Source: an uncultured Deinococcales bacterium
GTDB lineage: Bacteria; Deinococcota; Deinococci; Deinococcales; JAAFIG01
Direction of reading: 5' to 3'
Assembly: GCA_964247135.1 (NCBI GenBank)
Contig: CAXTTL010000025.1
Location: forward strand, 1 to 32,325
DNA: 32,325 bases
Of the stretch, positions 2 to 32,324 are shown piece after piece; the first letter of the stretch is position 1; each line of letters opens with the position of its first letter. Made by a program: the position numbers and the translations under genes. The notes under the pieces were generated by a model that was not told the origin of the DNA, did no database searches, and saw only the letters and a list, made by a program, of their open reading frames with translations.

Positions 2-763
2 GATACGGTACAAATCGTGCAGGGCGATACCGAATCTGGTCCTTATGCGCCCGCCAGCGGTGGGTCGCAAATCACAGTCAGCGTTTCGGGCGCGGTTCAA
101 GACGCCAGCGTTCAAGTCCGAAATCAACTGCTCGAGGTTGCCGCACTCGAACTCGAGGCACACAAGGATGATCTCGAGTTGAAGAACGGCGCGGCGCAAG
201 TCAAAGGTGTACCTGAAAAAGCCATTGCGATAGGGCGCTTGGCGCAAATCGCTCAATCCAAAGCGGGTGGAATGGGTCCAATCGTTGCCGAGGGGCGTGC
301 CGCCATGAAATCTGGCGCTCCTGGTTTTACGGTGCAACTGGCTCGGGTCAGCGTCAACAAACTGACAGGTTTGATCACGCCGCTCGAGTTTGTGGCGGTG
401 CAAGACGTGGGTTTTGCCCTCAACCCGACCTTGATCGAAGGGCAGATGCACGGCGGCAATGCCCAAGGTTTGAGCATGGGCTTGTACGAAGCGATGCGTT
501 TTGACGAAAGCGGCATTTTGAACAGCGCCAATTTTCTCGAGTATCACTTCCCACGCGCCACAGATTTGCCACCCTTCGAGGCGGTGATTTTGCAAGAACC
601 CAGCGACAGCGGACCGTTCGGCGCAAGGATTGTCGGCGAACCACCGATTGTGGCTGGCGGCGCTGCTGTCGCCAATGCGATTCGTGCCGCCACTGGAATT
701 CGGGTGCTCGAGTTACCGGTCAAACCCGAAGCGCTCTGGAAAGAGATGCAAGCCAAAGCCTAA
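2..763 (+). CDS. Xanthine dehydrogenase/CoxL-family molybdopterin-binding subunit, C-terminal part (5' truncated by window)
   Basis: Frame is open from base 2. Motifs GDT..GP...SGGS, DVGFALNPTLIEGQMHGG..QG and GPFGARIVGEPP..AVANAIRAATG are typical of the Mo-binding subunit C-terminus. Confidence 0.9.
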   Translation, partial: DTVQIVQGDTESGPYAPASGGSQITVSVSGAVQDASVQVRNQLLEVAALELEAHKDDLELKNGAAQVKGVPEKAIAIGRLAQIAQSKAGGMGPIVAEGRAAMKSGAPGFTVQLARVSVNKLTGLITPLEFVAVQDVGFALNPTLIEGQMHGGNAQGLSMGLYEAMRFDESGILNSANFLEYHFPRATDLPPFEAVILQEPSDSGPFGARIVGEPPIVAGGAAVANAIRAATGIRVLELPVKPEALWKEMQAKA

Positions 764-776
764 ACCGCGTTTGAGA

Positions 777-1295
777 TTATTTTGCCAACAAGGCTTTGAT
801 TTGTTGCTCGAACGGTTCGACCCCGCTCGGGTATTCACTCGAGAGTTCGCCGCGTTCGCTCGAGATCAAATGCCCTTGGCGGTCAATCAAATAAAAGGTT
901 GGCCAAGCATTTGCGCCGTAAGCATTCCAGGTGGCGTAATCGTTGTCCTGCATGACCCGCCAAGTAATGCCCTCGCGTTTGATCCAGCTTTTCACCAAGC
1001 CCGCCGGTTTTTGCCATTTTGTTTCAGGCGTGTGAACCCCAACAATCTCGAGTCCCTGCGTCTGATAACGTTTGAGCCAGGTTTTTAGGGTTGGGATTGA
1101 ACGAGTGCAATTGCTGCATTCAACCGTCCAGATGTTGACCAAGACCACCTTGCCGCGCAGTTGTGCCAAAGAGACTGGCTTGCCACCCAGCCACCTTCCG
1201 CCAAGCACAAATTCTGGGGCAATCTGAGGTGTAGAATTCGCCGCACCCAATGCAACGAGCGTCGTAACCAGCAAAACCAAGGGTTTGAGTTTCAT
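777..1295 (-). CDS. Secreted redoxin/thioredoxin-like protein (TlpA / DipZ C-terminal-like)
   Basis: N-terminal signal peptide; LRGKVVLVNIWTVECSNC (CxxC); GVHTPE; AWPTFYLIDRQG (cis-Pro loop). Confidence 0.85.
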   Translation of the reverse strand: MKLKPLVLLVTTLVALGAANSTPQIAPEFVLGGRWLGGKPVSLAQLRGKVVLVNIWTVECSNCTRSIPTLKTWLKRYQTQGLEIVGVHTPETKWQKPAGLVKSWIKREGITWRVMQDNDYATWNAYGANAWPTFYLIDRQGHLISSERGELSSEYPSGVEPFEQQIKALLAK

Positions 1296-1399
1296 CGTCT
1301 CAATGTACGCTCGAGGGACAAAATGGGTTCAAGGGTTTGAGAAACCAGCAAAACGCTGTACGATTTGGTCTCGAGTTTTCGCTCGAGCCAAGGAAACCC

Positions 1400-1666
1400 A
1401 TGACCAATAGTAAAACCGCTCCAACCATCGAATCCATGCAAACCGCCTGTGCTTTTCCCGACAAGGGCGAACGGCGTTACGCCAAGATCAACCTTGAGGC
1501 TGGCTTGCAACTGGCGTTTATTCGCACCAGCGGACGCCGCAACGAACCGCTCGAGGCGTGGTACGTCACGAACGAAACGGGCACGCTGCGGGTTCAGGAA
1601 GAACAAGTTTTAAGCCTTTTGAAACTTTGGACGGGCGGCGAAATCACAACCTTGCGAAACCAATAA
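1400..1666 (+). CDS. Hypothetical protein (88 aa)
   Basis: ATG at 1400 preceded by AAGGA; divergent from the redoxin; fills the gap before rodA; no family recognised. Confidence 0.55.
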   Translation: MTNSKTAPTIESMQTACAFPDKGERRYAKINLEAGLQLAFIRTSGRRNEPLEAWYVTNETGTLRVQEEQVLSLLKLWTGGEITTLRNQ

Positions 1667-1748
1667 AAATCTGAGTTCGAGTCTTTAAGGATGGCAGGGT
1701 GGATTCAACCATGAGCCATTCCTCACCCGAAAAAGATTTAAAATCACC

Positions 1749-1775
1749 AAGGCTCGAGGGGAAGCTCGAGCTTTT
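1749..1775 (+). terminator. Hairpin built from two CTCGAG copies followed by a short T run, upstream of rodA
   Basis: AAGGCTCGAG-GGGAAG-CTCGAGCTTTT: 10-bp stem with one G-U pair. Confidence 0.4.
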
Positions 1776-1793
1776 CCTGATGGGGTTTTTTGC

Positions 1794-2923: not shown

Positions 2924-4057
2924 ATGTTCAACACCCCAATCTGGGATGACACGCCCTGGAATCAACGCCCAGCTTTAACCCACGACCTCGAGACGGACGT
3001 CTGTGTGATTGGATTGGGCGGCAGTGGACTCTCGAGCATTTTGCGGTTGCTTGAGTTGGGACAGCGCGTGGTGGGGTTGGATGCAGGAATGGTTGCGGGC
3101 GGCGCGGCTGGGCGCAACGGCGGGTTTTTGCTGGCGGGTTTGGCAACGTTTTACCACGATACCGTTGCCGCGCTCGGGCGCGAACGAGCCAGCGCCGCCT
3201 ACCGCCTGACCATGCTCGAGATGGATCGCATAACCGCTCAGACGCCCAGCGCCATTCGTCGGGTGGGCAGTTTGCGCATTGCCACCACGCCAACCGAACT
3301 TGCGGATTGCCGTTTGCAAATGGCTGCCATGCAAGAGGGTGGTTTGCCCGTGAGTTGGTATTCTGGACTCGAGGGCGAGGGTTTGTTGATCGAAACCGAC
3401 GGTGCGTTTAACCCGCTCGAGCGGTGTCGGTTGCTTGCCCAACAGGCGATCAAAGCTGGGGCGCAACTGTTTGAAAACTCGAGTGTGACCAACCTTTCGG
3501 GAGTTGAGGTTCGTACCCAAAATGCTGTTGTTCGTTGCAAAAAAGTGATTGTCGCTGTGGACGGCAAACTCGAGCTTTTATTGCCCGAATTGACAGGTCA
3601 GGTTCGCACGGCGCGGCTTCAAATGATCGCCAGCGCTCCGACAAACGAAGTGCAGCTTTCACGCCCAGTCTATGCCCGTTGGGGCTACGAATACTGGCAG
3701 CAACTCCCGAATGGCAGCATCAGTTTGGGAGGCTTCCGTGACGCCGCACTCGAGCAAGAATGGACGACCGACTCTCAGCCTTCGCCACCGATTCAAGACT
3801 TACTCGAGCAATTTCTGCACGAAAAAATTGGGGTGAAAAACGCGCCAATTACGCACCGTTGGGCGGCGAGCGTCAGTTACTCGAGCAACGCCTTGCCAGT
3901 GCTGAGGGAAGTCCGTGAAAATCTTTGGGCAATTGGTGGTTACAGCGGCACGGGCAACGTGGTCGGCGCTTTGTTTGGGCGTATGGTGGCGGACCTTGCG
4001 GTGACAGGAAAGTCCGAGAATGCCGCTTTGTTTCTCGAAGCAGGCTCAAGAACTTAA
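2924..4057 (+). CDS. FAD-dependent oxidoreductase, DAO/PuuB-like
   Basis: DVCVIGLGGSG (GxGxxG), GAAGRNGG and C-terminal GGYSGTG motifs; TAAACT (2912-2917) lies 6 nt before the ATG, a leaderless-type start. Confidence 0.85.
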   Translation: MFNTPIWDDTPWNQRPALTHDLETDVCVIGLGGSGLSSILRLLELGQRVVGLDAGMVAGGAAGRNGGFLLAGLATFYHDTVAALGRERASAAYRLTMLEMDRITAQTPSAIRRVGSLRIATTPTELADCRLQMAAMQEGGLPVSWYSGLEGEGLLIETDGAFNPLERCRLLAQQAIKAGAQLFENSSVTNLSGVEVRTQNAVVRCKKVIVAVDGKLELLLPELTGQVRTARLQMIASAPTNEVQLSRPVYARWGYEYWQQLPNGSISLGGFRDAALEQEWTTDSQPSPPIQDLLEQFLHEKIGVKNAPITHRWAASVSYSSNALPVLREVRENLWAIGGYSGTGNVVGALFGRMVADLAVTGKSENAALFLEAGSRT

Positions 4058-4206
4058 GGATTTTTGTCGTTCATGCCATCACGAAAGCCTTTTCCAGTGG
4101 CTCGAGCGATTGAGTACCACATTCGCGGTAGGAAAGCGTAGTTGATTCCGATTAGGACAAGAGCGATAACTGCAAGACCAATCAATTCGAGAGCGCCTAA
4201 ACTCAT
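4054..4206 (-). CDS. Small membrane protein, TatA/E-like architecture (50 aa; not in ORF track)
   Basis: Hand translation MSLGALELIGLAVIALVLIGINYAFLPRMWYSIARATGKGFRDGMNDKNP: one TM helix then an amphipathic helix. TATTGT lies 5 nt before the ATG. The stop shares TTAA with the convergent gene. Confidence 0.65.
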   Translation of the reverse strand: MSLGALELIGLAVIALVLIGINYAFLPRMWYSIARATGKGFRDGMNDKNP

Positions 4207-4274
4207 GCTTCACAATACGACGGTTTTAGTCAGATCGTTCCATCATCCGCCCATGAGCTTCTCTTTGTAAATTA

Positions 4275-4345
4275 TGAGATGCGAATCATATTTATTTCAC
4301 GGTGTAGCTACTCAAAATCCTAAGTTGATGAGAATTTTTTCTCAT
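4275..4345. promoter_or_regulatory. Two CRP/DdrI-like palindromes in the divergent intergenic region
   Basis: TGAGA-N6-TCATA (4275-4290) and perfect TGAGA-N6-TCTCA (4329-4344), with the same geometry as the CRP-family TGTGA-N6-TCACA site. Confidence 0.45.
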
Positions 4346-4553
4346 GATTCTTAGACCAAAAAAAGTTTTGCTATTTTGACCAGAGGAAAACCAAAACCTT
4401 GGGTATTGTGTAAACGATTACGCAGTGTCTTGCTTTCACTTTTTACTTCACTGCATTTGCAACTCGAGCAACAATTCATGACGACCAAATTCGGAACTGA
4501 ACACATCAAAAATCAACTCGCCTGACCAGAATTTTTGGCAGGCTGGAGGTTTA

Positions 4554-6941: not shown

Positions 6942-6957
6942 AAAGACCATCAAACTC

Positions 6958-6989
6958 AAACGCTCGAGGCATGTGCTCGAGCGTTTTTT
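6958..6989 (+). terminator. Intrinsic terminator whose stem is two CTCGAG copies
   Basis: AAACGCTCGAG-GCATGTG-CTCGAGCGTTT-TTT, starting 17 nt after the M23 gene stop. Confidence 0.8.
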
Positions 6990-7009
6990 GATTCGGGTAG
7001 AATACCCAA

Positions 7010-7420: not shown

Positions 7421-7445
7421 AACGCGTTTGCGTTAAAATAGCCTC

Positions 7446-8075: not shown

Positions 8076-8098
8076 CAAACTCGAGTTTGGTTTTTTTT
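8076..8098 (+). terminator. Weak terminator-like palindrome centred on CTCGAG plus T run
   Basis: CAAACTCGAGTTTG followed by GTTTTTTTT, directly after the YceH stop. Confidence 0.4.
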
Positions 8099-8126
8099 CA
8101 TTCATGCTTGATAGACTAAAATTCCA

Positions 8127-10394
8127 ATGGGTCCTCACATTTACGGCATTCGTCATCACGGTCCAGGCTCGAGCCGTAGCTTGCAACGCGCTTTAGAATC
8201 GCTGGAGCCAGATTGCATTCTGATTGAAGGTCCACCAGAGGCGAATGGCATCCTGTCGTTCGTCTCGAGCGCCCAGATGCGCCCGCCGATTGCCATTCTG
8301 GTTCATAACGCCCAAACACCATCGCTTGCCGTCTATTACCCTTTTGCGGCGTTCAGTCCAGAGTGGGCTGCGATAAAATTCGGGCTGGCTCGAGCTTTGC
8401 CGGTGCGGTTCATGGATTTGCCGCAGGCGCATCAGTTGCTCGAGCAAGAATCTCGACCCGAAATTGAATTGCCTGAACTTGACCGCTCGAGCCTTCCAAG
8501 CCCAACTGAAATCCCGATTCAAAACGATCCTTTAAGTTGGCTGGCACGCGCCGCAGGTTTTTCGGACGGCGAACGATACTGGGAATATCTGGTCGAATCC
8601 AGGGACGATGCGACCGATGTTTTCCCCGCGATTCTGGAGGCAATGACGGCACTGCGCACCGAGGCTTCAAATGCGCCAGATTTTGTGCTCGAAGCCCGAG
8701 AGGCGAGGCGCGAAGCTTACATGCGCCAAACCATTCGCGCCGCGCAAAAAGAGGGTTTTGAAAAAATTGCGGTGGTTTGCGGCGCATGGCACTCGCCCGT
8801 TTTGGATGTCTCGGGCGAAAACATTCCGAATGCAAAATCTGATGCCGCAACCTTGAAAGACCTGCCCAAAGCCAAGGTTTCCGCCACCTGGACGCCCTGG
8901 ACGCACGGGCGTCTGTCGCGCTCGAGCGGCTACGGCGCGGGCGTGGATTCGCCAGGTTGGTATGCGCACCTGTTCGAGTATTCGCATTCTGGTTCAAGCC
9001 TGGTCACCACACATTGGATGGCGAGCATCGCGCGGTTGTTGCGCTCCGAAGGACTTGATGCCTCGAGTGCCAGCGTGATTGAAGCGGTGCGATTATCCCA
9101 AACCATCTCGAGTTTGCGCGGACTGCCGATGCCAGGGTTGGGCGATCTTTCTGACGCGGCTCGAGCGGTGTTCTTGTCCGATTCCGAATTGCCAATGGCA
9201 CTGATTCATGACCGTTTGATCGTCGGCGAAACCTTGGGTTCAGTGCCGAGCGAAGTGCCAACCGTGCCGTTGCAACGCGACCTCGAAGCCTTGCAAAAGC
9301 GTTTGCGAATGCAGCCAGAAGCCGTCGAGAAAACCCTCGAGCTGGATTTGCGCAAACCCAATGACCTCGAGCGTTCGGTGTTGCTGCACCGTTTAAATTT
9401 GCTGGGCATCAATTGGGGCGAAATCCGCAACTCGAGCGGCACTGGAACGTTTAAGGAAACCTGGCAATTGCGTTGGCAACCCGAGTTCGCGGTGCGAATC
9501 ATCGAAATGGGCGCTTACGGGCAAAGTGTTCTGGAGGCGGCAAGTGCTTACGCCAAGGAACTTTCGGACAAATCTCGAGCCTTGCCAGAATTGACAAATC
9601 TTCTCGACTTGGTTTTGCTTGCCGCGCTGCCCAACGCCACCAGCCATTTGCTCTCAAGGCTCGAGGCGGAATCGGCGCTCTCGAGTGACGTGCCAGTGCT
9701 GATGGCTGCCATTGTGCCACTCGCTCGGGTGTTGCGCTATTCCGATGTCCGTCAAACCGACGCTGGCGTGGTGGGTCATGTGGTGAATGGTTTGATCGCT
9801 CGGGTCAGCGTGGGCTTGCCAGGGGCGAGCCTGAGTCTGTCAGACGAAGCTGCCGAGCATCTTTTTAAACTCGTGCTCGAGGTCAACGCCTCCATTTCAA
9901 CCCTCAACCTTCCCGAGCACCTCGAGACTTGGTTTGAAACGCTTGAAACCATCTCGAGTAAATCTGGCATTCACGGTCTGATCGCGGGTCGCGCCGTGAG
10001 GTTGCTGCTCGAGGCTGGTCGTTTGAATGCAGAACACGCCGCCAAACACCTGGGTTTTGCCGCCTCGAGCGCCAGCGACCCAGCCCAAGTTGGCGTTTGG
10101 GTCGAAGGTTTCTTGACGGGCAGCGGTTTAGTCTTGCTGCACGATGACATCCTCTGGGATGTGCTCGAGAACTGGTTGATGTCACTGACCGAAGAACATT
10201 TTATCGCCGTGCTGCCCTTGCTGCGCCGCACCTTCTCGAGCTTTCCCGCGCCCGAACGTCGCAGCATGGGTGAAAAAGCCAAACACGGCGAAACTCGAGT
10301 GCTGCAAACACAAGAACTGGAAGTTGATGAAGCTCGAGCGGGGTTGGTGCTGCCTTTAATCGCCAAAATGCTTGGACTCGAGGTTCAAACTTGA
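8127..10394 (+). CDS. DUF5682/YehM-like protein
   Basis: GIRHHGPGS, LIEGP, YYPFA.FSPEW.A, RE.YMR, VVCGAWH, SGYGAG..SP.WY and LPLLRRTFS motifs. Confidence 0.85.
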   Translation: MGPHIYGIRHHGPGSSRSLQRALESLEPDCILIEGPPEANGILSFVSSAQMRPPIAILVHNAQTPSLAVYYPFAAFSPEWAAIKFGLARALPVRFMDLPQAHQLLEQESRPEIELPELDRSSLPSPTEIPIQNDPLSWLARAAGFSDGERYWEYLVESRDDATDVFPAILEAMTALRTEASNAPDFVLEAREARREAYMRQTIRAAQKEGFEKIAVVCGAWHSPVLDVSGENIPNAKSDAATLKDLPKAKVSATWTPWTHGRLSRSSGYGAGVDSPGWYAHLFEYSHSGSSLVTTHWMASIARLLRSEGLDASSASVIEAVRLSQTISSLRGLPMPGLGDLSDAARAVFLSDSELPMALIHDRLIVGETLGSVPSEVPTVPLQRDLEALQKRLRMQPEAVEKTLELDLRKPNDLERSVLLHRLNLLGINWGEIRNSSGTGTFKETWQLRWQPEFAVRIIEMGAYGQSVLEAASAYAKELSDKSRALPELTNLLDLVLLAALPNATSHLLSRLEAESALSSDVPVLMAAIVPLARVLRYSDVRQTDAGVVGHVVNGLIARVSVGLPGASLSLSDEAAEHLFKLVLEVNASISTLNLPEHLETWFETLETISSKSGIHGLIAGRAVRLLLEAGRLNAEHAAKHLGFAASSASDPAQVGVWVEGFLTGSGLVLLHDDILWDVLENWLMSLTEEHFIAVLPLLRRTFSSFPAPERRSMGEKAKHGETRVLQTQELEVDEARAGLVLPLIAKMLGLEVQT

Positions 10395-10409: not shown

Positions 10410-10580
10410 TTCCCTCTCATCCCCGACCCGTCTTGCTCACAAGACAGCACCTCACGGGCTGTTCGCGCTTCTCTCCTTGGAAAGAAGGGATTTGGTCTTG
10501 TGTTGAATGGCGGCATAAATTGTCAAGACCAGACCATGCCCGAAACAAGGTCTTGTAGGGGTGAACCTTGTGTTCACCCT
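10410..10580. repeat. Structured intergenic mosaic with a GTAG-type REP-like hairpin
   Basis: GTAG followed by GGGTGAAC-CTTGT-GTTCACCC (10555-10579). Further inverted repeats: GTCTTG/CAAGAC (10430-10445) and CAAGACC/GGTCTTG (10524-10555). Confidence 0.5.
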
Positions 10581-10629
10581 CGAGCACAGTGATTTTTGAA
10601 GATAGAACTCGAAATTTTGGAGGGCAACC

Positions 10630-15255: not shown

Positions 15256-15336
15256 CTCGAGAGACGGTTTTTCGTTTTCAGCACGTTATAAAATCTGATT
15301 TTGCTCGAGTAAGACTTTGACTTGCTACAATTGCGC

Positions 15337-16776
15337 ATGAACACTTTTTGGACTCGAGTTTTGCTGATGTTTTTGGTTTTGGGGCTGGTTGCTTGTCCAC
15401 GTTACCCAATAGATTTTGGTGACCCCAGTGTGGTTCGTGGCACTTTCAATGGCACATTCACGACCCATTGCGGTTTTCGTCTTCTTGGGTCGGCATGGAG
15501 TCCAGACAGTTCTAAAATCGCAACCCTTGACTCGAGAAACAATGGTCATTTGATTGTTTGGGATGCTGTGACAGGTGTTCAACTTGACAGTGTGGATCAG
15601 GTTGGGTGGAATTTGAGAGAAGACGCCGCACTGGGTTGGACGAGCGACGGTCAACGTGTAATCGTGCCAGATCGTAGCAGCATCCCAGAGAAATTACGCT
15701 TTTATAACGTTCAAAATAAGGCTTTTGATGCGGAAACAAAGCTGAACGGATTTATTGGAGCATCTGTCCTGTATTTTAGCCGTAGCGGTACTCGATTTTG
15801 GACTTCAACAAGAACACCATCAAATGACGCCTCGATTGTTTCATATCTCAAAATTGACATCTGGGACGTATCTTCAGGTCAATTGATTCGTACTTTTCAA
15901 TTTGCCAATCATTCATGGTGGGATTTTGATTTTGCGCTCAGTTTGAGTGGGGAACAACTGGTTTACTCCAATAATTCAATCGTGCAAGTTTGGTCTGTTG
16001 CTACAGGAGAAAAAACACATGAATGGAAATTGGCTGGGAATTTCATTCTGGGTTTGCAATTTACCCAAAATGACAAATTTGTAAATGGGGTAAAAGTAGC
16101 AAGTCCAGATGGGATCAATCCGCGTTTTGTCCGTTTTAACCTTGATTCACTGGAATTGACAGAGCAAGCAGAAATGCCAGGTAGATTGCTGGATTTTTCT
16201 GACGATGGACTTCAGGCGGCATTGAGCAATTACCAATTCGATTCACGTTTTACGAAGATTCAGACCTTTGACCTCGAAACTGGAATGTTATCTAAACCCA
16301 TCCTGGAAACGAATTTTCAAGAAAAAGGAAAACTCAGTCCGAATGGTCAATCTGTTTTACTAACAGGTGAATATTCACTTTGTGGTTTACAACGCGTGAA
16401 ACTTTCCGATGGCAGTGAACAAAAACTTTTGCTTCTACCATCAAAAAACCTAACTGTGACGCTACAACTGAACGCAATCTGGCAAAATGAATCTCAATAC
16501 CAGGTGACCGGTACGGCATCCATTGGCGATGTGAAAGGTTTAACTGTAATTGGAACAGGATATCCCGAAGGTGATAAATATTTTGTTAATCCCAAAACTT
16601 CACCCATTCGTCCTCCATACACTGAACTCAAAATTCGAGACAATGGTTCGCAGGTTTGGTCTGGCACTCTATTCAATTATGGGTCGCAAGGGCAAGCCAA
16701 CACCTACTCAGGGAATTTTTTTATTGGAAATGACTACGATGTTGTTTATGGTCTTGAGGTCACACGAACGCCTTGA
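15337..16776 (+). CDS. Lipoprotein with WD40-like beta-propeller
   Basis: Lipobox LVAC; repeats WSPDSSKIA..IVWD, IWDVSSG, VWSVATG, FSDDG, LSPNG; TACAAT 5 nt before ATG 15337; AT-richer than its flanks. Confidence 0.8.
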   Translation: MNTFWTRVLLMFLVLGLVACPRYPIDFGDPSVVRGTFNGTFTTHCGFRLLGSAWSPDSSKIATLDSRNNGHLIVWDAVTGVQLDSVDQVGWNLREDAALGWTSDGQRVIVPDRSSIPEKLRFYNVQNKAFDAETKLNGFIGASVLYFSRSGTRFWTSTRTPSNDASIVSYLKIDIWDVSSGQLIRTFQFANHSWWDFDFALSLSGEQLVYSNNSIVQVWSVATGEKTHEWKLAGNFILGLQFTQNDKFVNGVKVASPDGINPRFVRFNLDSLELTEQAEMPGRLLDFSDDGLQAALSNYQFDSRFTKIQTFDLETGMLSKPILETNFQEKGKLSPNGQSVLLTGEYSLCGLQRVKLSDGSEQKLLLLPSKNLTVTLQLNAIWQNESQYQVTGTASIGDVKGLTVIGTGYPEGDKYFVNPKTSPIRPPYTELKIRDNGSQVWSGTLFNYGSQGQANTYSGNFFIGNDYDVVYGLEVTRTP

Positions 16777-23241: not shown

Positions 23242-23413
23242 TGGTCCTCCTTGAACACTGATTTGTAGTATACGGCTCGAGTTGTATTGAAAGCATCAAG
23301 ATTTGCCGCTAAGGATCAAATGGGCTGTTCTCACCCGTTTGAGATGATTCGACTTTACATTTTTCTAAAGTGAATTGACGCTACTTTTGTCTAAAGTCTT
23401 TTGGAGGTATCAA

Positions 23414-25420: not shown

Positions 25421-25697
25421 TTGAATTTGTCAGCCACGAGCGTCCCACGAATTCAAAGCCTGGCGACTCGAGCAAACAAGGTTCTTCAAGCCCTGAAAGT
25501 TGATTGCGCTTTGAGGTTCATAAATGGTGTGGTGCAGAGTTTGAACCTCGAGTGATACCCAAAAGCGCGGCGTTTCTTTGAACGCGGTGAAAAATGCTCG
25601 CAAATTTGCTCGAGTCGGGACAATCGACTCATCACTACAGTTGAAATGTGCCTTTCTCAAGGCATTTTCTCGAGTTTGTGACAGTATTGTGTTTTGG

Positions 25698-25726: not shown

Positions 25727-25801
25727 GAACTGTTGCTCTCGACACGGCTTTACTTCAACGTCGCCAACTCGAGAGGCGCAAGTCTTAGGAGGACTTTAGG
25801 A

Positions 25802-27652
25802 ATGGAAGACACGGTCATTCAGAATCAGACCGCTGAGGCGGTCAACACTCAAGCCGCACCTGCGGCACCCGTAGCCGCTTCAGCACCAGCCGAAACGGAA
25901 TATCCCGCCATGACGATGGAAGACGTGCTCGCGTCGGAAGAGGATCGCGTCAGCGAACTCAACCGTGGCGATGTCGTCTCTGGAACCGTCGTGTTTGTTG
26001 GAGCCGAAGGCGTGGCACTCGATGTCGGCGCGAAGATAGAGGGCACAATCCCGCTGAACCAACTCAGCGAAGAACCCTTGACGCTCGAGCAAGCCCAAGA
26101 GCAATTCAAACCAGGCGACAAGATCGATGCTTATGTGGTTCGTTCTGACATGCAGAACGGCGTCATCATTTTGTCTAAAAAGCGTGCCGAGCAAGATAAA
26201 GGCTGGCGCAAGCTTCAAGCTGTGTTTGAAAACAACGAAAACATCACGGTTCACATTGACGAAAAAGTCAAAGGTGGTCTTGTGGCAAACATCGAAGGCG
26301 TTCGCGCTTTCTTGCCTGCCAGTCAACTTGATGTGCGCCGCGTCAACGAACTCGATCCTTACGTTGGGCATCCGCTCGATGTTCGTCTGATCGAACTGAA
26401 CCGCAAACGCAACCGCGTGATCATTTCACGTCGTAGCATCATTGAAGAGCAAAAGAACAAAGCCAAAACCGAAACGCTTGACCGTCTTGCCCCAGGCACG
26501 ATTCTCGAGGGTGCGGTCGTCGAAATCACCGATTTTGGCGTCTTCGTCAACCTCGGCGGCGTCGATGGTTTGGTTCACCGCTCCGAATTGACTTACGCCC
26601 GTTTTAACCATCCAAAAGAGGTCGTGAAACTTGGCGAGCATGTCAAAGTCCAAGTGATTGACGTGGACGGCGAACGTGACCGCATCAACCTGTCCATGAA
26701 AGCCCTATCGAACGACCCGTGGCAAGCCGCCGTCGAGAAGTACACGATTGGGCAGCGCGTCAAGGGTAAAGTCACCAACCTCACCAACTTCGGTGCATTC
26801 GTCGAAATCGAATCTGGACTCGAGGGTCTGATTCACGTTTCCGAACTTTCCTGGACCAAACGCGTGCGTCACCCCAACGAAGTCCTCAAAGAAGGCGACG
26901 AGGTCGAAGCCGTCATCTTGCGCATGGACTCCAAAGACCGTCGCATCAGCTTGGGCTTGCGTCAAACCACCCCTGACCCTTGGAGCGCCCTGCCAGCCAA
27001 GTATCCACCAGGAACACCAGTCAGCGGCAAAGTCACCGGCTTAACCGATTTCGGCGTGTTCATGGAAATCGAAGAGGGCATCGAAGGCTTGATTCACATT
27101 TCCGAACTTGCCCACGAGCGCGTCACCAACCCAAGCGATCTGTTCAAAAAAGGCGACGACATCGAAGCCGTGGTCTTGAACATCGACCCCGTTGACCAAC
27201 GCGCCAGTCTTTCCCGCAAACGCACCCTTCCAGGTGGACCACCCGTCCGCGAAGAGGGCGCATCAGGCAGCACCGGCGCGAACATCCCAAGTGGACCGAG
27301 CCGCGCAGAGCGCTTTGGCACACGCGAGGGCGGCGCAAACCGTTACGGCGGCGGCGGCAACCGAGGCAACCAACAAGGCGGCGGCAAAGGTGGACGTGGC
27401 GGATACGACTACGACTACTCGAGCAGCAACAACAACAGCGCCAACGCTGACGCTGGCGGCGGTAAAGTCACCACCAAACTTGGTGACGTGTACGCGGACT
27501 TGTTCGCCCAATTTGGAATCGGTGGCGGTAAGAAAGACGAACTCAAAACCGAAGAGAAAGTTGTTGCCAGCGCACCAGCAGCACCAGCCCCAGTGGTTGA
27601 GGCAGCACCAGAAGTGGCAGCAGAAAGCTCGAGCGAAACCAGCGAAAGCTAA
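25802..27652 (+). CDS. rpsA: 30S ribosomal protein S1
   Basis: Five S1 repeats ([28 protein letters not shown] etc.); Gly-rich tail with [10 protein letters not shown]; strong SD before ATG 25802. Confidence 0.96.
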
Positions 27653-27707: not shown

Positions 27708-27839
27708 GACACTCGAGGTGCAGAAAATTCACTTGCTCAAAAGGCTTGTTTACTTTGAAAGGTGCTTTCAACCCCCTAAAAATTAACGTAGAATTGACCA
27801 AAGTAGCCAAGACATTTTCGATACAGGGAGTGTGTAGTT

Positions 27840-28634
27840 ATGAATGATGATATTCATTTTCTTCGAGAAACAGTCGTCAATATCGATGCCGCTGTGGTTG
27901 GTATCAGTTCATCAAGTTGGGTATCTGCATCAGCGGAATCTACCGAGGAATCGGCGCGTAGTATTATGGAACCCAATCGCTTTGACATTCTTCCAATCGA
28001 AAATCCTAAGGGCGTGCGTGAGTATTTTAAAACAGACATCTATAACCAATATTCAGCAATTTCTCGTCACGCTATTGGTCATCGTGATGTTGTTCCCTTT
28101 TCCACGCCAATACGAACCATTGTTGAGCGATTTTCTATAGATAAAAGAACTTTTCTCTTTCTGGTGAACGAGCGACGCATTGTTGGTTTGATCACACTAT
28201 CAAATTTAAACTGCCGACAAGTATCGATTTATTTGTTTAGCTTATTTACGGAATTAGAGGTTAAAATAGGCAATTTATTGATGAAAAACTGTAAAGAAGA
28301 TGAGATAAAAAATTTAACTTTTGAAAATAGTAATTATCCTAAACACCGAGGTATTAAAAATCGCTATAAAGAAGATAAAGAAAACGGAGTAGAAATCCCG
28401 GTAGTTGAATATCTATATCTATCAGATTTAATAAATCTGATAGAAACAAAGAAATTTTATAGAGATATTGGTCTTCAAGATGATGAAGAATCTAAAAAAA
28501 TTCTTAAAGATTTGAATAAAACGCGAAATACTGCTGCTCACCCAATAAAATCTATAATATTAGATTTGGATTCATGTTGTGAATTATGGAAACAAATAGA
28601 GCTTGTAGAAAATATCTTATTTTACCTTCGATAA
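27840..28634 (+). CDS. Putative CBS-pair plus Swt1-like HEPN protein
   Basis: CBS-like ARSIM...FDILPI and TPI..IV..F....FLFLV..RRIVGLITLSNLN; helical C-terminus with YLYLSDLINLI and RNTAAH (R-x4-H); very AT-rich; no CTCGAG. Confidence 0.65.
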   Translation: MNDDIHFLRETVVNIDAAVVGISSSSWVSASAESTEESARSIMEPNRFDILPIENPKGVREYFKTDIYNQYSAISRHAIGHRDVVPFSTPIRTIVERFSIDKRTFLFLVNERRIVGLITLSNLNCRQVSIYLFSLFTELEVKIGNLLMKNCKEDEIKNLTFENSNYPKHRGIKNRYKEDKENGVEIPVVEYLYLSDLINLIETKKFYRDIGLQDDEESKKILKDLNKTRNTAAHPIKSIILDLDSCCELWKQIELVENILFYLR

Positions 28635-28696
28635 ATTTGATTAATTCCCATCCTATTTCTTAATTTCTTATTTTTCAAGGTAGAGGTGATTGAATC

Positions 28697-29047
28697 ATGG
28701 CATTAAAAAAATGGCAACACGCAATTCACGCTGTTTTTAAGAAATTACAAGATTATCAAACGCCTATGCCTGACGGTTTAGAACGTGAATTTATTCTGGA
28801 TGACCAAAACGGGCATTACCAGATTCTGGATGTCGGTTGGATAGACCAAAAACCTGTGCAAGACATCATGGTGCATATTGACCTTAAAAACGATTTTGTT
28901 TGGGTGCAAGCCGATAACACCACCCACGGCATTGTGGATGCGCTTCTCGAGCAAGGTGTGCCTCAAAATCGGATTGTGCTTGGTTTTCATGCGCCGTATA
29001 AAAGAAAATTTACGGGTTTTGCAACTGGTACGGAAATTTCTGCGTAA
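28697..29047 (+). CDS. XisI family protein
   Basis: D...GHYQI..VGW, HIDLKN..VWVQ.D.T..GI...LLEQGVP...IVLGF..PY.R..TGFA. Confidence 0.9.
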   Translation: MALKKWQHAIHAVFKKLQDYQTPMPDGLEREFILDDQNGHYQILDVGWIDQKPVQDIMVHIDLKNDFVWVQADNTTHGIVDALLEQGVPQNRIVLGFHAPYKRKFTGFATGTEISA

Positions 29048-29096
29048 CTTGAGGACATTTTTCAAGTTCGTTTTGACCCTCGAGAACGCTAGACAT

Positions 29097-29489
29097 TTAC
29101 CTTATTAAGCGGATTTTAACTTTTAAGTTTGGAATTTTATTCCAACTTTGTTCCGCTGTTAAAACGTGCAAACCTTTTGCCTCTGCCAGAGCCAGACACG
29201 CACAGTCCCCCAATGAAAGTTCGTAAGGGTTACGTCTCGCATAAAAAAATGCCACGCCTTCGGCTTGTTGGCGGTCTAAATCAGCCAACTCGAGCAATGC
29301 TCCAAAAGCTTCTAGCGCTGCATCCACTTGCTTTGATGTGTGAGTGCCGCTTCCAACCAATTTTCCTTTGGTTTCGGCGTAATTGATTACCGACATCAAA
29401 AAGCCGTGTTGAAGTTGTTCTTCAACCACAGCCGCACCGTTTTCGTCTCGAATGAAGGCGATCAAGGCACTCGAATCAATCACGTACAA
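29097..29489 (-). CDS. vapC: VapC/PIN-domain toxin
   Basis: YVIDSSALIA, SVINYAE, LSLGDCACLALA, VLTAE; 1 nt downstream of the antitoxin stop. Confidence 0.9.
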   Translation of the reverse strand: MYVIDSSALIAFIRDENGAAVVEEQLQHGFLMSVINYAETKGKLVGSGTHTSKQVDAALEAFGALLELADLDRQQAEGVAFFYARRNPYELSLGDCACLALAEAKGLHVLTAEQSWNKIPNLKVKIRLIR

Positions 29490-29490
29490 C

Positions 29491-29760
29491 TTAAAAACCC
29501 TTCTTTTTGGCTTCCAAACGACGATTCTCGAGCAATTCTGAAGTCAAATCTTTACTGTCGTCTGTTTTTAGAATTCCGCGCAAGCGTTTCGCCAAAGCTT
29601 GACGGGTGACGAGTACAACGTGGTCGCCTTCGAGGGTCGCAATCAATTCATCACCAGATTGAATGCCCAGAGCGCGACGGTATTCGACTGGAATAACAGC
29701 CTGTCCTTTTGGTCCAACAGTTACGGTTTGGCTTAACTTTGGAGCAAAGGTTTTACTCAT
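29491..29760 (-). CDS. vapB: AbrB/MazE-type antitoxin (VapB)
   Basis: VTVGPKGQAVIPVEYRRALGIQSGDEL; ATG 29760 lies 6 nt after TATACT on the minus strand. Confidence 0.88.
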   Translation of the reverse strand: MSKTFAPKLSQTVTVGPKGQAVIPVEYRRALGIQSGDELIATLEGDHVVLVTRQALAKRLRGILKTDDSKDLTSELLENRRLEAKKKGF

Positions 29761-29766
29761 AAAATA

Positions 29767-29790
29767 AGTATAATACAAATGTATTTGTAT
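29767..29790 (-). promoter_or_regulatory. vapBC -10 box and adjacent palindromic operator
   Basis: TATACT (minus strand, 29767-72) abuts a perfect ATACAAAT-GT-ATTTGTAT inverted repeat (29773-90). Confidence 0.7.
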
Positions 29791-29953
29791 AACTTAACTG
29801 CTTTCGGCAAGATTTCGTGACGCTGTGGTGGCTCGAGCCAAATCATGTTGCGAGTTTTGTTTGTCACCGCTCGATTTTTCGAGTGATGATTTTGAGTTGT
29901 TTAAATCTCCTTCCCTGTCCTGAATTTCTGACCAAATCTGCTAGACTAAACCC

Positions 29954-30208
29954 ATGAACGTGCAACTCGAGTTACCACAAGAGTTAGAAGCACTGCTCAA
30001 CCCAAACCCAGAACGCAACGTTCTCGAGTCGGTATTGTTGCGGCTTGTTCGTTTGGAAAAAATCAGTGTCGCTCGAGCGGGTGAAATTCTTGGTTTGACC
30101 CGTGCCGAAGCCATAAAATGGTACTCGAGCCAAGGTTATCCATTCCCAGAATTTGACACGACAGATTGGGAAGATGAACTCGATAGCGTGAAACCTTTGA
30201 GTTGTTGA
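29954..30208 (+). CDS. UPF0175-family putative antitoxin (orphan)
   Basis: LELP.EL, KISVARAGEILGLTR.E; acidic tail; TAGACT 6 nt before the ATG. Confidence 0.8.
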   Translation: MNVQLELPQELEALLNPNPERNVLESVLLRLVRLEKISVARAGEILGLTRAEAIKWYSSQGYPFPEFDTTDWEDELDSVKPLSC

Positions 30209-30216
30209 AGGATAAC

Positions 30217-30399
30217 CTACACTTTTGTTTTAACGCGTTTTAAATCTTTAACCCGAAACTTCACCAAGGCTTTCGGTAAAACTCGAGCAGCATCGCCATC
30301 TAGTTCTGGAGCGTCAGCATAACGCCCCTGCGCTTGCCGTGTTGCTATCGGTTCGCGTTTCCTGAATTGTTTTCCTGTGGGAAGCGTTTGGTCGTTCAT
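30217..30399 (-). CDS. Small basic hypothetical protein (60 aa)
   Basis: ATG 30399 lies 7 nt after TAGAAT (minus strand, 30407-12), which overlaps the upstream stop codon; fills the gap exactly. Confidence 0.55.
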   Translation of the reverse strand: MNDQTLPTGKQFRKREPIATRQAQGRYADAPELDGDAARVLPKALVKFRVKDLKRVKTKV

Positions 30400-30409
30400 A
30401 GGCTGCATT

Positions 30410-31114
30410 CTACCACTTGGAAGCCAATTCAATCGATTTTTGCTCGAGATACGCGTCTAAAATGATGTTAGAACTCGAATTGGGTTGTAAGTCAAACTGC
30501 ATGTCTTTGGAGTAACCGTGTTTACGCCAGAAATCAAGCCCGATTCCGTCTTCAATGCCAAACATCAAATCATGCAAGGTCAAGGTGGCTTCGGGTAACT
30601 CGAAACCTGTGTCATTACTAAATGCCAAACGCAATTGCTCGAGTTCAGTGTTCGTAAAACTGGTATTGAATCCCAACCTTGCCCAAGTATAATAACCGTT
30701 GGCTTCTCGTCCTCGGACCGCCAGCAGTTCAATACTTTGAAACCCGAGTTGTATTGCTTTGGCAACTTGGTGCGCCAATAATCGCGTTCCGATTTGGTTG
30801 CCCGTTGGGTCGAGAAAGAGGTTATCAACCATGATGTAGGGGTCTGTGTTGGCAAAAATATACTCGTGTTGGGTTTGGATGCCCCATTTAGGACAGTGCG
30901 CTGCAATGCGCACGACGAGTTCGTCTGGATGCCAAGCGTAATCAAGTTCGCTAACCACACTTTGATTTGGGATGGCTGCTACATCAAGCAATTGCATCAA
31001 TTTTAGCGCATGGTGATGCTCGAGCAATGAGGCTTCGAGTTCCTTGGCGTCGTTTTGATCGAAAAAATCAATCGTTCGAGGTTGACCAAAAAGTTGTTGA
31101 CTGATTTCGTCCAT
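30410..31114 (-). CDS. GNAT-fold-like protein
   Basis: DNLFLDP.GNQIGTRLL..QV.KA..LGF..IEL.A (motif A-like) and NGYYTWARLGF (motif B-like); TATAAT 11 nt upstream. Confidence 0.6.
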   Translation of the reverse strand: MDEISQQLFGQPRTIDFFDQNDAKELEASLLEHHHALKLMQLLDVAAIPNQSVVSELDYAWHPDELVVRIAAHCPKWGIQTQHEYIFANTDPYIMVDNLFLDPTGNQIGTRLLAHQVAKAIQLGFQSIELLAVRGREANGYYTWARLGFNTSFTNTELEQLRLAFSNDTGFELPEATLTLHDLMFGIEDGIGLDFWRKHGYSKDMQFDLQPNSSSNIILDAYLEQKSIELASKW

Positions 31115-31187
31115 AAACTCAAAGAATTATACGATTGTAACCGTGAATTCGCGCTTTTGGCTGTTGTTGAATAAAAAACAATCAATT

Positions 31188-31955
31188 TTAGCTCGAACCT
31201 TTAACCATTCGAGTTTCCTTTTCAATCACCGTGAAGACCACAAAAACCACATTCCCTTCGGGGTGAACATCCACCACGGCTTTCATTTTTTTGCCGCTTC
31301 TGAATGGAATATAACTTTCATCCGTCAGCGGCAATCCAGTCTCGAGCGCAACATGGGCTGGATGATCTTGGGGAATGATCGTGCCGTTGCTGAGTGGGTA
31401 ACGCATTTCACTGGTGCGGGTGCTAAATTCCACCTCGAGCATCTTGGCTTTGGCGCGAAGTACACCAACAATCGCTTTACCCTCCAGACTTTGCGCCAAA
31501 ACCACGCAGGCGGCAGGTCGTGAAATCGTAAAGCTTTTAACGATGCGTGGGATCGCTCGAGCGCCGCGTCCGTATTTTTGCAGCAGTGCCTCGAGTTCGA
31601 TTTCTGGCACAAGTATCGCACTTGCCCCGACGTTGCACAATATCTCGATGGCTTCCTCGAGATCATCGCCTTGGTAAGCGTCGTGCAAGTCCGAGAGCAG
31701 GTCGTCGTCTGCGAGAATCAAAGCATGGGTGACTTCGTGTGCCATCGTGAAGCGTTGACGCTCGAGGGTCACGGTTTTGGAAATAAAAATCACGTTGCGG
31801 TTTGGGTCGAACGCGCCGTCTTTGTCGCCCAGATCGCCGTACTCGAGTTTTGCGCCGATGGCGGCGGCAAGGTCGAGGGGTTCTCGAGCAGGGTGCGAAA
31901 GGTTGAACTCGGCGGCGAGTTCGCGCACTCGGGTTTTGTGTTCCTGTAAGACCAC
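31188..31955 (-). CDS. irrE: IrrE/PprI zinc metalloprotease
   Basis: DGAFDP, RQRFTMAHEVTH (HExxH), DDDLLSDLHDAY.GD.LE..IE.LCNVGA, PFRSGKKM. Confidence 0.93.
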   Translation of the reverse strand: MVLQEHKTRVRELAAEFNLSHPAREPLDLAAAIGAKLEYGDLGDKDGAFDPNRNVIFISKTVTLERQRFTMAHEVTHALILADDDLLSDLHDAYQGDDLEEAIEILCNVGASAILVPEIELEALLQKYGRGARAIPRIVKSFTISRPAACVVLAQSLEGKAIVGVLRAKAKMLEVEFSTRTSEMRYPLSNGTIIPQDHPAHVALETGLPLTDESYIPFRSGKKMKAVVDVHPEGNVVFVVFTVIEKETRMVKGSS

Positions 31956-31965
31956 GTGTACCTCG

Positions 31966-32001
31966 AAATAAAAATGGGAACGGATTTGAAACCCGTTCCC
32001 A
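31966..32001 (-). terminator. Hairpin plus U-tract between ddrO and irrE
   Basis: Minus strand TGGGAACGG-GTTTCAAAT-CCGTTCCCA-TTTTTATTT. Confidence 0.7.
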
Positions 32002-32021
32002 CACGTTACCCTAATTTTGGT

Positions 32022-32324
32022 TTACTCGAGGATGCGTTTGAGATTTCGGTAAATGTCGTACCAGTCTTCTTTGGTTTGCGGACGCTTGCCGCGCAACTCG
32101 ATGCGAGAAAGGCTCGAGACCCAATCGGGGGTGATGTGTCCGCCCAGAACGGGGTCGGCGAGCAAATCTGCCAAGCCTTTCGGCAGGGCGCTGTCGCTGG
32201 CATCGCCGTAAAATTCGACGGGGGCAAGCAAGTCATTCACGCTGAGGTCGTAAGCGCCAGCCAGGGTTTGCAGGGTCTCGAGGCTGGGGTTGGTGCGTCC
32301 GCGCTCGAGGTCGCTGAGGTAAGG
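32022..32324 (-). CDS. ddrO: DdrO XRE-family repressor (5' truncated by window)
   Basis: Open frame from the window edge: [25 protein letters not shown]...[40 protein letters not shown]. Confidence 0.95.

Follow-up and report, generated by a model that had tools for sequence, protein, structure and literature searches.

What holds a single six-base palindrome, CTCGAG, at about 25 times its expected frequency in a bacterial genome? The question is raised by a stretch of 32,325 nucleotides from an uncultured Deinococcales bacterium (contig CAXTTL010000025.1, here C25, of assembly GCA_964247135.1, here G000), which is called the window below. An earlier note on this DNA had reported about 218 copies against roughly 8 expected, in all three reading frames and in intergenic DNA, and both statements held up. 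Exactly 218 copies were counted between 131-136 and 32304-32309, the two outermost sites, compared to a mean of 6.29 in 100 dinucleotide-preserving shuffles of the window (standard deviation 2.61, maximum 16), none of which reached 218. The sites divide into 104 in the frame CTC-GAG, 28 in xCT-CGA-Gxx, 58 in xxC-TCG-AGx and 28 in intergenic DNA. CTCGAG is an element like the highly iterated palindromes (HIPs) of cyanobacteria, with both phylum and word being new, and it is probably kept by a conversion- or uptake-type molecular drive.

Abundance of CTCGAG in genes and spacers

The source assembly (5,091,702 bases in 386 contigs, GC content 52.7%, estimated completeness 84%) holds 33,925 copies of CTCGAG where base composition predicts 1,369. 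This is a 24.8-fold excess, or one copy per 150 bases and about 6,660 per Mb; the excess over a trinucleotide expectation was 27.2-fold. CTCGAG is the commonest hexamer by a margin of more than two-fold, and the runners-up, GCTCGA and TCGAGC, merely overlap it. No other palindromic hexamer rose above 3.7-fold, and the 18 single-mismatch variants lay between 0.08- and 1.76-fold, with none enriched. The flanks showed a weak symmetric preference (A at -3, G at -1, C at +1 and T at +3; 0.35-0.44) and almost no information past +/-3. The unit is a bare, stand-alone hexamer. At 3,401 intergenic sites the contexts were almost all unique, with one 16-mer context occurring 18 times, and extended complementarity was absent; therefore, the intergenic copies are not parts of hairpins or repeat families. 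CTCGAG is a palindrome of the HIP kind, a 6-bp word standing outside repeats, hairpins and mobile elements.

Observed/expected ratios (O/E) were 22-26 in each GC class of the assembly, from <38% through >62%, and one of 2,341 two-kb windows had no copy. Gaps of more than 1.5 kb numbered 16, compared to 1.4 expected. A spacing of exactly 6 was never seen because it would form GAGCTC, a word with 0 copies in the assembly, and spacings of 7-17 reached about half of expectation. Counts at 250-500 bp were slightly under-dispersed (variance/mean 0.81-0.91, compared to at least 1.05 in controls), which is about what the exclusion of spacings below roughly 18 bp yields alone, and counts at 1 kb and above were over-dispersed (1.12-1.89). 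There is thus no evidence for regular spacing, and gap and dispersion analysis gave no signal past the short-range exclusion. Density was flat at 6-7 per kb upstream of and within genes and reached 12 per kb in the first 30 nt past stop codons. The tRNA and transfer-messenger RNA genes are partly spared, with 11 copies in 5.5 kb compared to 36.7 expected at genome density. A search for the 16S gene in this assembly and one congener found none, the rRNA being unassembled. Segments of at least 1 kb that did not align to fetched congener DNA had an O/E of 23.9, compared to 25.2 for aligned DNA; only about 10% of the congener G012 was fetched, and some of this seemingly specific DNA may lie elsewhere in it. 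Single newcomer genes, such as the window gene at 15322-16776, are poorer in CTCGAG than flexible DNA overall.

Could the excess be a by-product of translation or composition, that is, of a preference for CTC, GAG, Leu-Glu or the codon pair without a cause at the DNA level? Genes called with a home-made, codon-usage-trained procedure (4,697 genes, 87% of the genome) contain 29,152 copies (6.57 per kb), with 18,220 in CTC-GAG, 4,292 in xCT-CGA-Gxx and 6,640 in xxC-TCG-AGx. The 62% share of the CTC-GAG frame would suit such a by-product, as would the finding that CTC and GAG preference alone lifts CTCGAG about 10-20-fold over base composition in high-GC genomes. However, that codon effect lifts GAGCTC equally, as seen in viral contigs and in genus g7, and here this mirror word from the same codons is missing and the dipeptide Glu-Leu is not enriched (O/E 1.01). 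Intergenic DNA is also enriched as much as genes, with 4,741 copies (7.29 per kb, O/E 35.4) in all and 5.79 per kb (26.7-fold) in long trimmed spacers. When synonymous codons were shuffled within genes, with proteins and codon usage kept (10 replicates), the observed counts were 5.8-, 14.1- and 11.5-fold higher in the three frames as ordered above, and codon-order shuffles (10 replicates) gave 14.8-, 26.4- and 21.6-fold. A dicodon-preserving null, which fixes in-frame CTC-GAG by construction and cannot test that frame, still left 4,292 copies against 2,360 (1.82-fold) and 6,640 against 3,542 (1.87-fold) in the other two. Codon choice points the same way: CTC makes up 92% of Leu codons before GAG and 13% before codons not starting with G, GAG 94% of Glu codons after CTC and 32% after non-Leu codons, TCG 73% of Ser codons before AGN compared to 18%, and CGA 74% of Arg codons after NCT compared to 12%. 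The excess is therefore neither confined to the Leu-Glu frame nor lost under dicodon shuffling, and the view of the earlier note that codon or amino-acid bias does not explain it agrees with all three nulls and with the intergenic enrichment. We rejected the by-product, which has a very slight chance of being right, on the intergenic enrichment, the out-of-frame excess and the lack of GAGCTC.

The effect reaches the predicted proteome, where Leu-Glu is the most over-represented dipeptide (23,667; O/E 2.35; about 13,600 extra) and 18,220 of the pairs (77%) are written CTC-GAG. Ser-Ser is also raised (O/E 1.61). Across 22 loci of different lineages, the O/E of Leu-Glu tracked the strength of CTCGAG (Spearman's rho 0.66, with small and non-independent samples), from 2.0-2.8 in the window's family through 1.1-1.7 in moderately enriched genera to 0.87-0.92 in cyanobacterial and Bacteroidota loci. 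We are confident that a DNA-level force overrides synonymous codon preference and roughly doubles the Leu-Glu content of the proteome.

The reverse word GAGCTC, the SacI site, has 0 copies in the assembly against about 1,250 expected from the counts of GAG and CTC, and 0 in the window. None of 10,222 Glu-Leu dipeptides is written GAG-CTC. Two other genomes of the family have 6-15 copies, and across the phylum GAGCTC tends to be low where CTCGAG is high. Further six-bp palindromes are nearly missing from the assembly (GGGCCC 1, CGGCCG 3, AGGCCT 4, CGTACG 5) or scarce (GGATCC 7, CCGCGG 11, CAGCTG 15, GCATGC 17, CGATCG 47), and shorter ones are avoided as well (GGCC 380, CTAG 1,409). This scarcity looks like a restriction-avoidance landscape. 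GAG-NN-CTC (O/E 0.31) and CTC-N-GAG (0.37) are also depleted, so that CTCGAG pairs at spacing 8 are almost missing (11 compared to about 215 expected), and this depletion may reflect a further avoided target.

Turnover of the word and its spread among relatives

Conservation was measured in an alignment of 324,783 nt with the congener G012 (85.7% identity; 468 kb of G012 fetched). CTCGAG was retained at 1,819 of 2,254 sites (0.807), compared to 0.459 for all hexamers, 0.492 for words of the same composition and 0.367 for other palindromes, and it was the best retained of all hexamers with at least 60 occurrences. Intergenic copies were retained at 185 of 248 sites (0.746; background 0.408), and copies in the three frames at 0.843, 0.702 and 0.803 (background about 0.46). 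Where the amino acid was conserved, CTC was kept in 1,078 of 1,136 cases (0.949) before GAG and in 697 of 1,253 (0.556) elsewhere, and GAG in 0.968 after CTC compared to 0.695 otherwise. Leu-Glu itself was better conserved in proteins when written CTCGAG (0.926) than when written otherwise (0.824). In the window region, four congeners keep 0.79-0.83 of the sites, and private sites of the source genome and the congener are balanced, at 34/33 for G012 and 39/35, 34/28 and 25/27 for three others. A five-species alignment of 14,082 columns with a near-star tree held 56 copies shared by all, 49 absent from one species, 11 unique to one species and 36 with other, ambiguous patterns. There is little doubt that the loss of existing copies is about five-fold slower than that of ordinary sequence and that gains balance losses. 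Among single-step differences, 81% were transitions, spread evenly over the three half-site positions (114/111/103), and therefore no single cytosine is a deamination hot-spot. Unpolarised "gain" rates (for example CTT, CTG or CTA versus CTC, 39/43 before GAG) were discarded as a measure of gains since they are probably mostly recent losses. A search of sequencing runs for population polymorphism yielded only two runs, of assembled contigs, which held 0.05-0.07 of the sampled words.

A model with one parameter was fitted, in which S is the scaled fixation advantage of the exact hexamer over every other word and O/E is predicted to be e^S everywhere. The natural logarithm of O/E was 3.21 genome-wide and 3.28-3.57 in spacers, and six independent synonymous contrasts in the three frames gave S values of 3.16, 3.16, 3.19, 3.50, 2.41 and 3.24. 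Completing the hexamer very probably carries the same log-odds advantage, an S of about 3.2 (the logarithm of the 25-fold excess), in spacers, in each frame and in every GC class. The model agrees with the data because O/E is uniform across GC classes and loss is about five-fold slower. We conclude with high confidence that CTCGAG is held by a weak, pervasive, per-site directional force acting on DNA at mutation-drive equilibrium. The active maintenance proposed by the earlier note is thus upheld by the retention, the balanced turnover and the uniform S. The fit does not separate weak selection from a conversion or uptake bias.

The closest relatives in a search with the window's DUF5682 protein were 10 loci of metagenome-assembled genomes (MAGs) named "Deinococcales bacterium" (55-91% identity), and the DNA around these orthologues is equally rich in CTCGAG (25.5-33.1-fold in all). 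One cyanobacterial and one Bacteroidota comparison locus had 0 copies each. Clustered CTCGAG triples were present in 19 of 19 genomes of the window's family (5 genera), compared to 0 for the reversed control. The excess is accordingly not restricted to the window, as it spans the 5.09-Mb assembly and the loci and genomes of its relatives. If the word were an artefact of assembly or of adapters, or came with a dispersed or tandem repeat or a mobile element that contains an XhoI site, two observations would fit: the 16-mer context seen 18 times and the dispersed short repeat that the window holds at about 10410-10600. Against this, the contexts are otherwise unique with flanks nearly free of information past +/-3, the sites lie inside conserved open reading frames (ORFs) at positions conserved between independently assembled genomes, and the same excess recurs in 10 of 10 MAG loci of separately named records and in 19 of 19 family genomes, one enriched member being a single 5.1-Mb contig. 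This explanation was rejected on the unique contexts, the positional conservation and the independent genomes, and its chance of being right is practically nil.

The spread of the word was surveyed in 201 Deinococcota genomes of five families, all labelled as the same order. In the window's own family, CTCGAG had 23,235-33,925 copies and GAGCTC 0-15. Genus g6 (83 genomes) had 26-1,010 copies and genus g7 (30 genomes) about 1,500-2,800, with GAGCTC about equal in both, and many other genera had 3,000-19,000 with far fewer GAGCTC. Because high-GC codon usage alone inflates both words, a trinucleotide-aware O/E was calculated on samples of up to 20 kb, normalised by N(CTC) x N(GAG)/L, with some genus samples of only 3-6 kb owing to short contigs. 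It was 27.8 for the window, 15.5 for G018 of the same family and 4.7-14.3 for eleven genera in the four other families sampled (g35, g8, g10, g12, g9, g13, g41, g28, g38, g37 and g27). Lower values were found for g11 (3.3 in a 4.8-kb sample), g19 (3.1), g7 (1.7, with GAGCTC at 1.9), g31 (0.6), g6 (0-0.4) and one g8 sample of 2.9 kb (0.7). A weaker excess is present in all five families sampled, with none in g7 and avoidance in g6, the two largest genera. The guess that the excess is a wider Deinococcota trait was therefore right for every family sampled, including all 19 genomes of the window's own, and wrong for these two genera. No report of CTCGAG hyper-abundance in Deinococcota turned up in the full-text literature searched, of which coverage was partial.

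Viral loci were examined in two scans (80 and 119 loci among the matches listed). These were mostly contigs of high GC content with GAGCTC and CTCGAG equally common; no f1-like virus of mid GC content was among the matches listed, so the result does not extend to viruses of the window's family. Five IMG/VR contigs among the matches listed (L188, L326, L353, L360 and L372; GC 0.57-0.65) had 27-57 copies of CTCGAG in 8-14 kb and 0-5 of GAGCTC, and CTCGAG was the commonest hexamer in four of the five. From their sequences, these contigs appear to show the asymmetric host-like signature in moderate form.

Candidate forces behind the excess

We tentatively prefer to see this force as a sequence-specific molecular drive of the gene-conversion type, at work when incoming or heteroduplex DNA recombines. 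A putative CTCGAG-recognising protein would favour the uptake, processing or retention of strands with the word, and it would probably be dimeric because the word is palindromic and its flank preference symmetric. As a result, alleles with the motif would displace those lacking it a little more often than they are displaced by them. CTCGAG is neither an ordinary restriction target nor a translational signal. The flexible genome is as saturated as the core (23.9 compared to 25.2) and restriction-modification genes carry 3-7 copies per kb, both of which fit gene flow confined to motif-bearing DNA. The roughly two-fold density peak just after stop codons is a further point for uptake or conversion, and this reading is also favoured because the methylase and Vsr candidates tested fail. 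ComEC and DprA were each present in 18 of 19 family genomes, the source genome included. A transformation-linked model thus survives a check that it might have failed, but the competence genes are too widespread to count as support.

Several points weigh against such a drive. No responsible molecule was found, and the case for an uptake or conversion agent is built on analogy and on elimination. The competence genes ComEC and DprA are near-universal and were also matched in 10-11 of 14 control genomes. Known uptake sequences are 9-12 bp long, non-palindromic and present about once per kb, in contrast to a 6-bp palindrome at 6.7 per kb. Direct weak selection or a methylation-directed repair bias would give a uniform per-site S just as well, and the saturated flexible genome could instead reflect fast accumulation. 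The source genome is 84% complete, methylase specificity is not readable from sequence here and the gene calls are home-made. The effect of HIP1 on transformation is methylation-dependent, according to the accessible part of one report (bioRxiv 10.1101/2024.09.10.611283), and a full analogy with HIP1 calls for a CTCGAG methylase, of which no conserved one was found in the family genomes scanned.

The source genome has about 12 DNA methyltransferase genes or fragments (PF07669, PF01555, PF00145, PF02384 and PF02086). Pfam scans found no Vsr (PF03852) in this 84% complete assembly and no XhoI-family endonuclease (PF04555) in it, G003 or G005. Methyltransferases of the five Pfam families were clustered across the source genome and five others, together five genera of the family and including the single-contig 5.1-Mb G018, and no orthogroup was common to all six. 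Among the partial orthogroups, the best were one of D12-class enzymes (G000, G012 and G018) and one of PF01555 enzymes (G000, G003 and G010). In Pfam scans G018 had zero PF01555 matches and G001 no 5-methylcytosine (m5C) methylase. Gamma-class proteins of about 500 aa, first thought to be type II enzymes of PaeR7I size, were rejected since they have an HsdM_N domain, one beside a specificity subunit, and are type I HsdM. The C36 and C320 methylases were rejected because their closest homologues lie in CTCGAG-poor g6 genomes, and the L044-type methylase because it is confined to two family genomes. When C36, C320, the L044-type enzyme and the XhoI-linked enzyme described below were profiled across the phylum, no correlation with CTCGAG richness was seen; in total, five candidate methylases, counting the XhoI-linked one, failed to co-vary with it. 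NCBIfam gave no specificities for the methyltransferases of the source genome, and the CTCGAG density within methyltransferase genes was nearly always 4-7 per kb, with residents and newcomers indistinguishable. In all of these comparisons non-orthologous enzymes can share a target, and the source genome is incomplete.

XhoI-family endonucleases were found in 4 of the 201 Deinococcota genomes, three in family f4 and a degraded one in f5. The three intact ones (L295, L296 and L297, the last at G043:C1:73699-77256) each lie beside a convergent PF01555 methylase of about 340 aa, and these methylases are about 70% identical to one another. G043 has this endonuclease and methylase and yet about 6-fold CTCGAG, making it a host rich in its own restriction target. 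Orphan orthologues of the XhoI-linked methylase (62-66% identity) occur in 22 of 30 g7 genomes (e.g. L304-L309), which show no CTCGAG excess and in which no XhoI-family endonuclease was detected. At E <= 1e-20 the methylase was not found in 18 g8, 4 g10, 3 g11, 2 f1 and 92 f2 genomes; other matches were in one genome each of g17 and g18 (63-64% identity) and a distant one in g37 (35%), and the best match in the source genome had 25-28% identity. A probable CTCGAG methylase of the XhoI-linked type thus appears neither necessary nor sufficient for the excess.

The fragments G000:C4:2-397 and G000:C207:3-827, both at contig ends, correspond to the N-terminal and the C-terminal portion of a single PF01555 methylase in G003, 344 aa long (75% and 80% identity), and are probably one gene split by the assembly; the G010 homologue also lies at a contig end. 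G000:C112:1671-6167 encodes a 1,499-aa protein with a gamma-class N6-adenine methylase domain and an SNF2-type helicase region. It has weak matches to DISARM DrmD and Dpd helicases and may be a defence-system component.

Two other forces could produce the same pattern. In Elhai's HIP model, an orphan CTCGAG or TCGA methyltransferase would mark the word, and methyl-directed or very-short-patch-type repair would convert near-cognates. Each cyanobacterial HIP co-occurs with a cognate methylase in the accessible part of PMC4390886, and CTCGAG is among the methylated motifs of some hot-spring MAGs and phages in what is available of bioRxiv 10.64898/2026.06.24.734251. The dozen methyltransferases of the source genome, the weak G(-1)/C(+1) flank preference that echoes Elhai's GmeC idea, and G043, which suggests that heavy methylation of many sites is tolerated in the phylum, would also suit this model. 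It is set back by the missing Vsr and XhoI-family endonuclease, by the lack of a methylase orthogroup across six genomes of five genera (no PF01555 enzyme in G018, no m5C methylase in G001), by the type I nature of the gamma-class enzymes, by the failure of C36, C320 and the L044-type enzyme to co-vary with CTCGAG, by the distribution of the XhoI-linked orthologues, and by transitions that are even over the half-site with no hot cytosine. These negatives are softened by the fact that non-orthologous methylases can share a specificity and that GAGCTC avoidance, equally strong, also comes without a conserved enzyme. The methylation link suggested in the earlier note thus found no support in gene content, and we regard methylation-directed repair as unlikely.

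Direct selection on each site (2Nes of about 3) for a chromosomal function is another possible explanation, for example with the copies as binding sites for some plentiful dimeric protein of the nucleoid, of segregation or of condensation, or as a self tag read by a defence system. Preferential conservation in both coding and non-coding DNA speaks for it, as do the palindrome and its symmetric extended preference, which are expected of a dimeric binder, and the even coverage (one siteless two-kb window in 2,341 and the low variance at 250-500 bp). Xu et al. also argue for selection and a nucleoid role of HIP1, in the available part of PMC5861425. However, the short-scale under-dispersion is about that of the short-range exclusion, and the over-dispersion at 1 kb and above leaves no sign of diminishing returns or regular spacing. 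No functional context is required for an S that is equal across compartments and GC classes, the cost in extra Leu-Glu dipeptides is large, two large sister genera lack or avoid the word, and no candidate binder was found. Direct selection seems improbable, if a little less so than methylation-directed repair, and our ranking places it second, after conversion or uptake drive and before the repair model.

With the drive reading in first place, a fuller account can be sketched, which we offer as doubtful in its entirety. CTCGAG may be the Deinococcota counterpart of HIP1 and of the DNA uptake sequence (DUS), a self-DNA word arising from motif-specific recombination or uptake drive without a dedicated conserved methyltransferase. 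It would be old enough for five sampled families and strongest (S of about 3.2) in the window's family, would later have been lost in one large genus and made an avoided restriction target in another, and would have added about 13,600 Leu-Glu dipeptides.

The window and known systems

The features of the window are listed in Table 1. The triple at 131..178 lies inside ORF 17-763 and reads LLEVAALELEAHKDDLEL. The CTCGAG-poor gene is without a DNA counterpart in five congeneric genomes, where matches end at about 15248 and restart at about 16789, and for this reason it is probably a recent insertion; C25 15216-16788 is also one of the stretches not aligned to congener DNA. The long gap opens the lower-GC end of the window (GC 0.438 over 28001-32000).

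Table 1. Positions of CTCGAG sites and of CTCGAG-rich and CTCGAG-poor features in the window
Feature	Position	Strand	Basis or remark
Array of 218 stand-alone CTCGAG hexamers, 6.7 per kb	131..32309	.	Window count and gene calls
Three in-frame CTCGAG, 21 bp apart, at 131, 152 and 173	131..178	+	Each encodes Leu-Glu
DUF5682 gene, 25 CTCGAG (11 per kb), frames 9/5/11	8127..10394	+	Pfam and site count
Intergenic CTCGAG (example)	10579..10584	.	Spacer from gene end 10394 to gene start 10630
Four intergenic CTCGAG at 25467, 25547, 25609 and 25669	25467..25674	.	Spacer flanked by genes 23375-25420 and 25733-27652
CTCGAG-poor gene of 484 aa, GC 0.43, 2 copies (1.4 per kb)	15322..16776	+	Site count
Site-free gap, 1,234 bp between sites 27712 and 28946	27718..28945	.	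Second long gap; gaps of at least 600 bp listed

The DUF5682 protein has 755 aa and is followed by a 225-aa ORF and a 392-aa VWA/CoxE-like protein (8127-12470 in all), and a homologue of AlkZ-like DNA glycosylases lies further downstream at 14191-15255. The spacer after the DUF5682 gene holds a short dispersed repeat (10410-10493 and 10548-10597; about 40-85 bp, 80-100% identity) with dozens of copies in the source genome and copies in all five congeners. It looks like a miniature inverted-repeat transposable element or a repetitive extragenic palindromic element.

For three decades the function and origin of HIPs have been an open question, pursued almost exclusively in cyanobacteria. That a HIP-like case exists independently in another phylum, with another word, means that the phenomenon is convergent. 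It also gives a natural comparative series within one phylum (15-28-fold in the window's family, about 5-14-fold in eleven genera, no excess in a large genus and avoidance in a second), which could be used to find the responsible protein through gene-content correlation, and through genetics where cultures exist. The single S of about 3.2 across spacers, frames and GC classes is a concrete target for mechanistic models, and the Leu-Glu O/E of 2.35 illustrates clearly how codon choice can yield to a DNA-level force that also alters protein sequence. If the drive reading is true, HIPs would be what recombination-linked drive generally and convergently produces, rather than a peculiarity of cyanobacteria, and the contrasting lineages of this phylum would offer a place to find the reader protein. 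In practice, DNA of this kind with unmethylated sites would be cut by XhoI roughly once per 150 bp, and CTCGAG could serve as a signature for binning these MAGs and their mobile elements or for placing them taxonomically. Its content may also matter when relatives are transformed, as the available HIP1 literature reports for that word.

Of the known systems, XhoI/PaeR7I-type restriction-modification has the same recognition word, and its family is present in the phylum (4 of 201 genomes, one degraded). Its targets are normally avoided, as many palindromes of the source genome are, whereas CTCGAG is 25-fold enriched there and neither the endonuclease nor a close homologue of the methylase was found (best 25-28% identity). 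In Escherichia coli, Dcm and Vsr provide a sequence-specific repair bias that raises the methylase target at the expense of one-off neighbours. The present case differs in that no Vsr, no conserved m5C methylase and no position-specific C-to-T signature were found, and the 25-fold effect is much larger than that at CCWGG.

The DUS of Neisseria and the uptake signal sequences (USS) of Pasteurellaceae such as Haemophilus form another known system, for which a molecular-drive model exists. Their preferential uptake has been shown experimentally. They are over-represented, spread evenly over core and flexible genes, and common to a clade whose neighbours lack them, and they turn over through one-off variants, are denser downstream of genes, leave an imprint on the proteome and go with competence genes, all of which resembles CTCGAG. 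In contrast to their longer, non-palindromic format with roughly one copy per kb, frequently in terminators as inverted pairs, CTCGAG is a 6-bp palindrome at 6.7 per kb. Extended complementarity was absent around intergenic CTCGAG sites, and the density peak of the word after stop codons is only 2-fold.

HIP1 (GCGATCGC) is the nearest counterpart. The accessible part of Elhai 2015 (PMC4390886) describes HIP1 and alternate HIPs of cyanobacteria, each with a cognate methylase, together with a methyl-directed repair model, and contains no mention of CTCGAG or Deinococcota. That of Xu et al. 2018 (PMC5861425) reports that HIP1 is periodic and that its conservation exceeds what codon effects explain. 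HIP1 proper was rejected for the source genome, where the abundant word is not GCGATCGC or its core CGATCG (47 copies, O/E 0.03); by comparison, CGATCG is the top hexamer of the cyanobacterial locus L010, which has 0 CTCGAG. HIP1 is an 8-mer at 300-2,700 per Mb with an O/E of 55-228 (PMC4390886, as far as available), compared to a 6-mer at about 6,660 per Mb with an O/E of 25. It goes with DmtA/DmtC, whereas for CTCGAG no conserved cognate methylase was found in the family genomes scanned, and for CTCGAG a measurable effect on dipeptide composition was seen here. Methylation of CTCGAG is known elsewhere, as m5C in a Halorubrum, according to the accessible portion of an MspJI-seq paper.

The likenesses go further. 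Both words are short GC-rich palindromes, hyper-abundant genome-wide in all frames and in spacers (PMC4390886 and PMC5861425, in the parts available). By the same partial sources, HIP1 is, like CTCGAG, better conserved between relatives than control words and than its own codons elsewhere, has a patchy phylogenetic spread with lineage-specific replacement or loss, and has a mechanism that is still debated. Recent work on HIP1 points toward uptake or conversion, at least in its accessible parts, since HIP1 boosts natural transformation (bioRxiv 10.1101/2024.09.10.611283) and correlates with the secretion and uptake apparatus (PMC13756078). The likeness to HIP1 and uptake sequences drawn in the earlier note was thus well founded, as CTCGAG has the abundance of a HIP, occurs in all frames and in non-coding DNA beyond the reach of codon usage, and is conserved above its controls.

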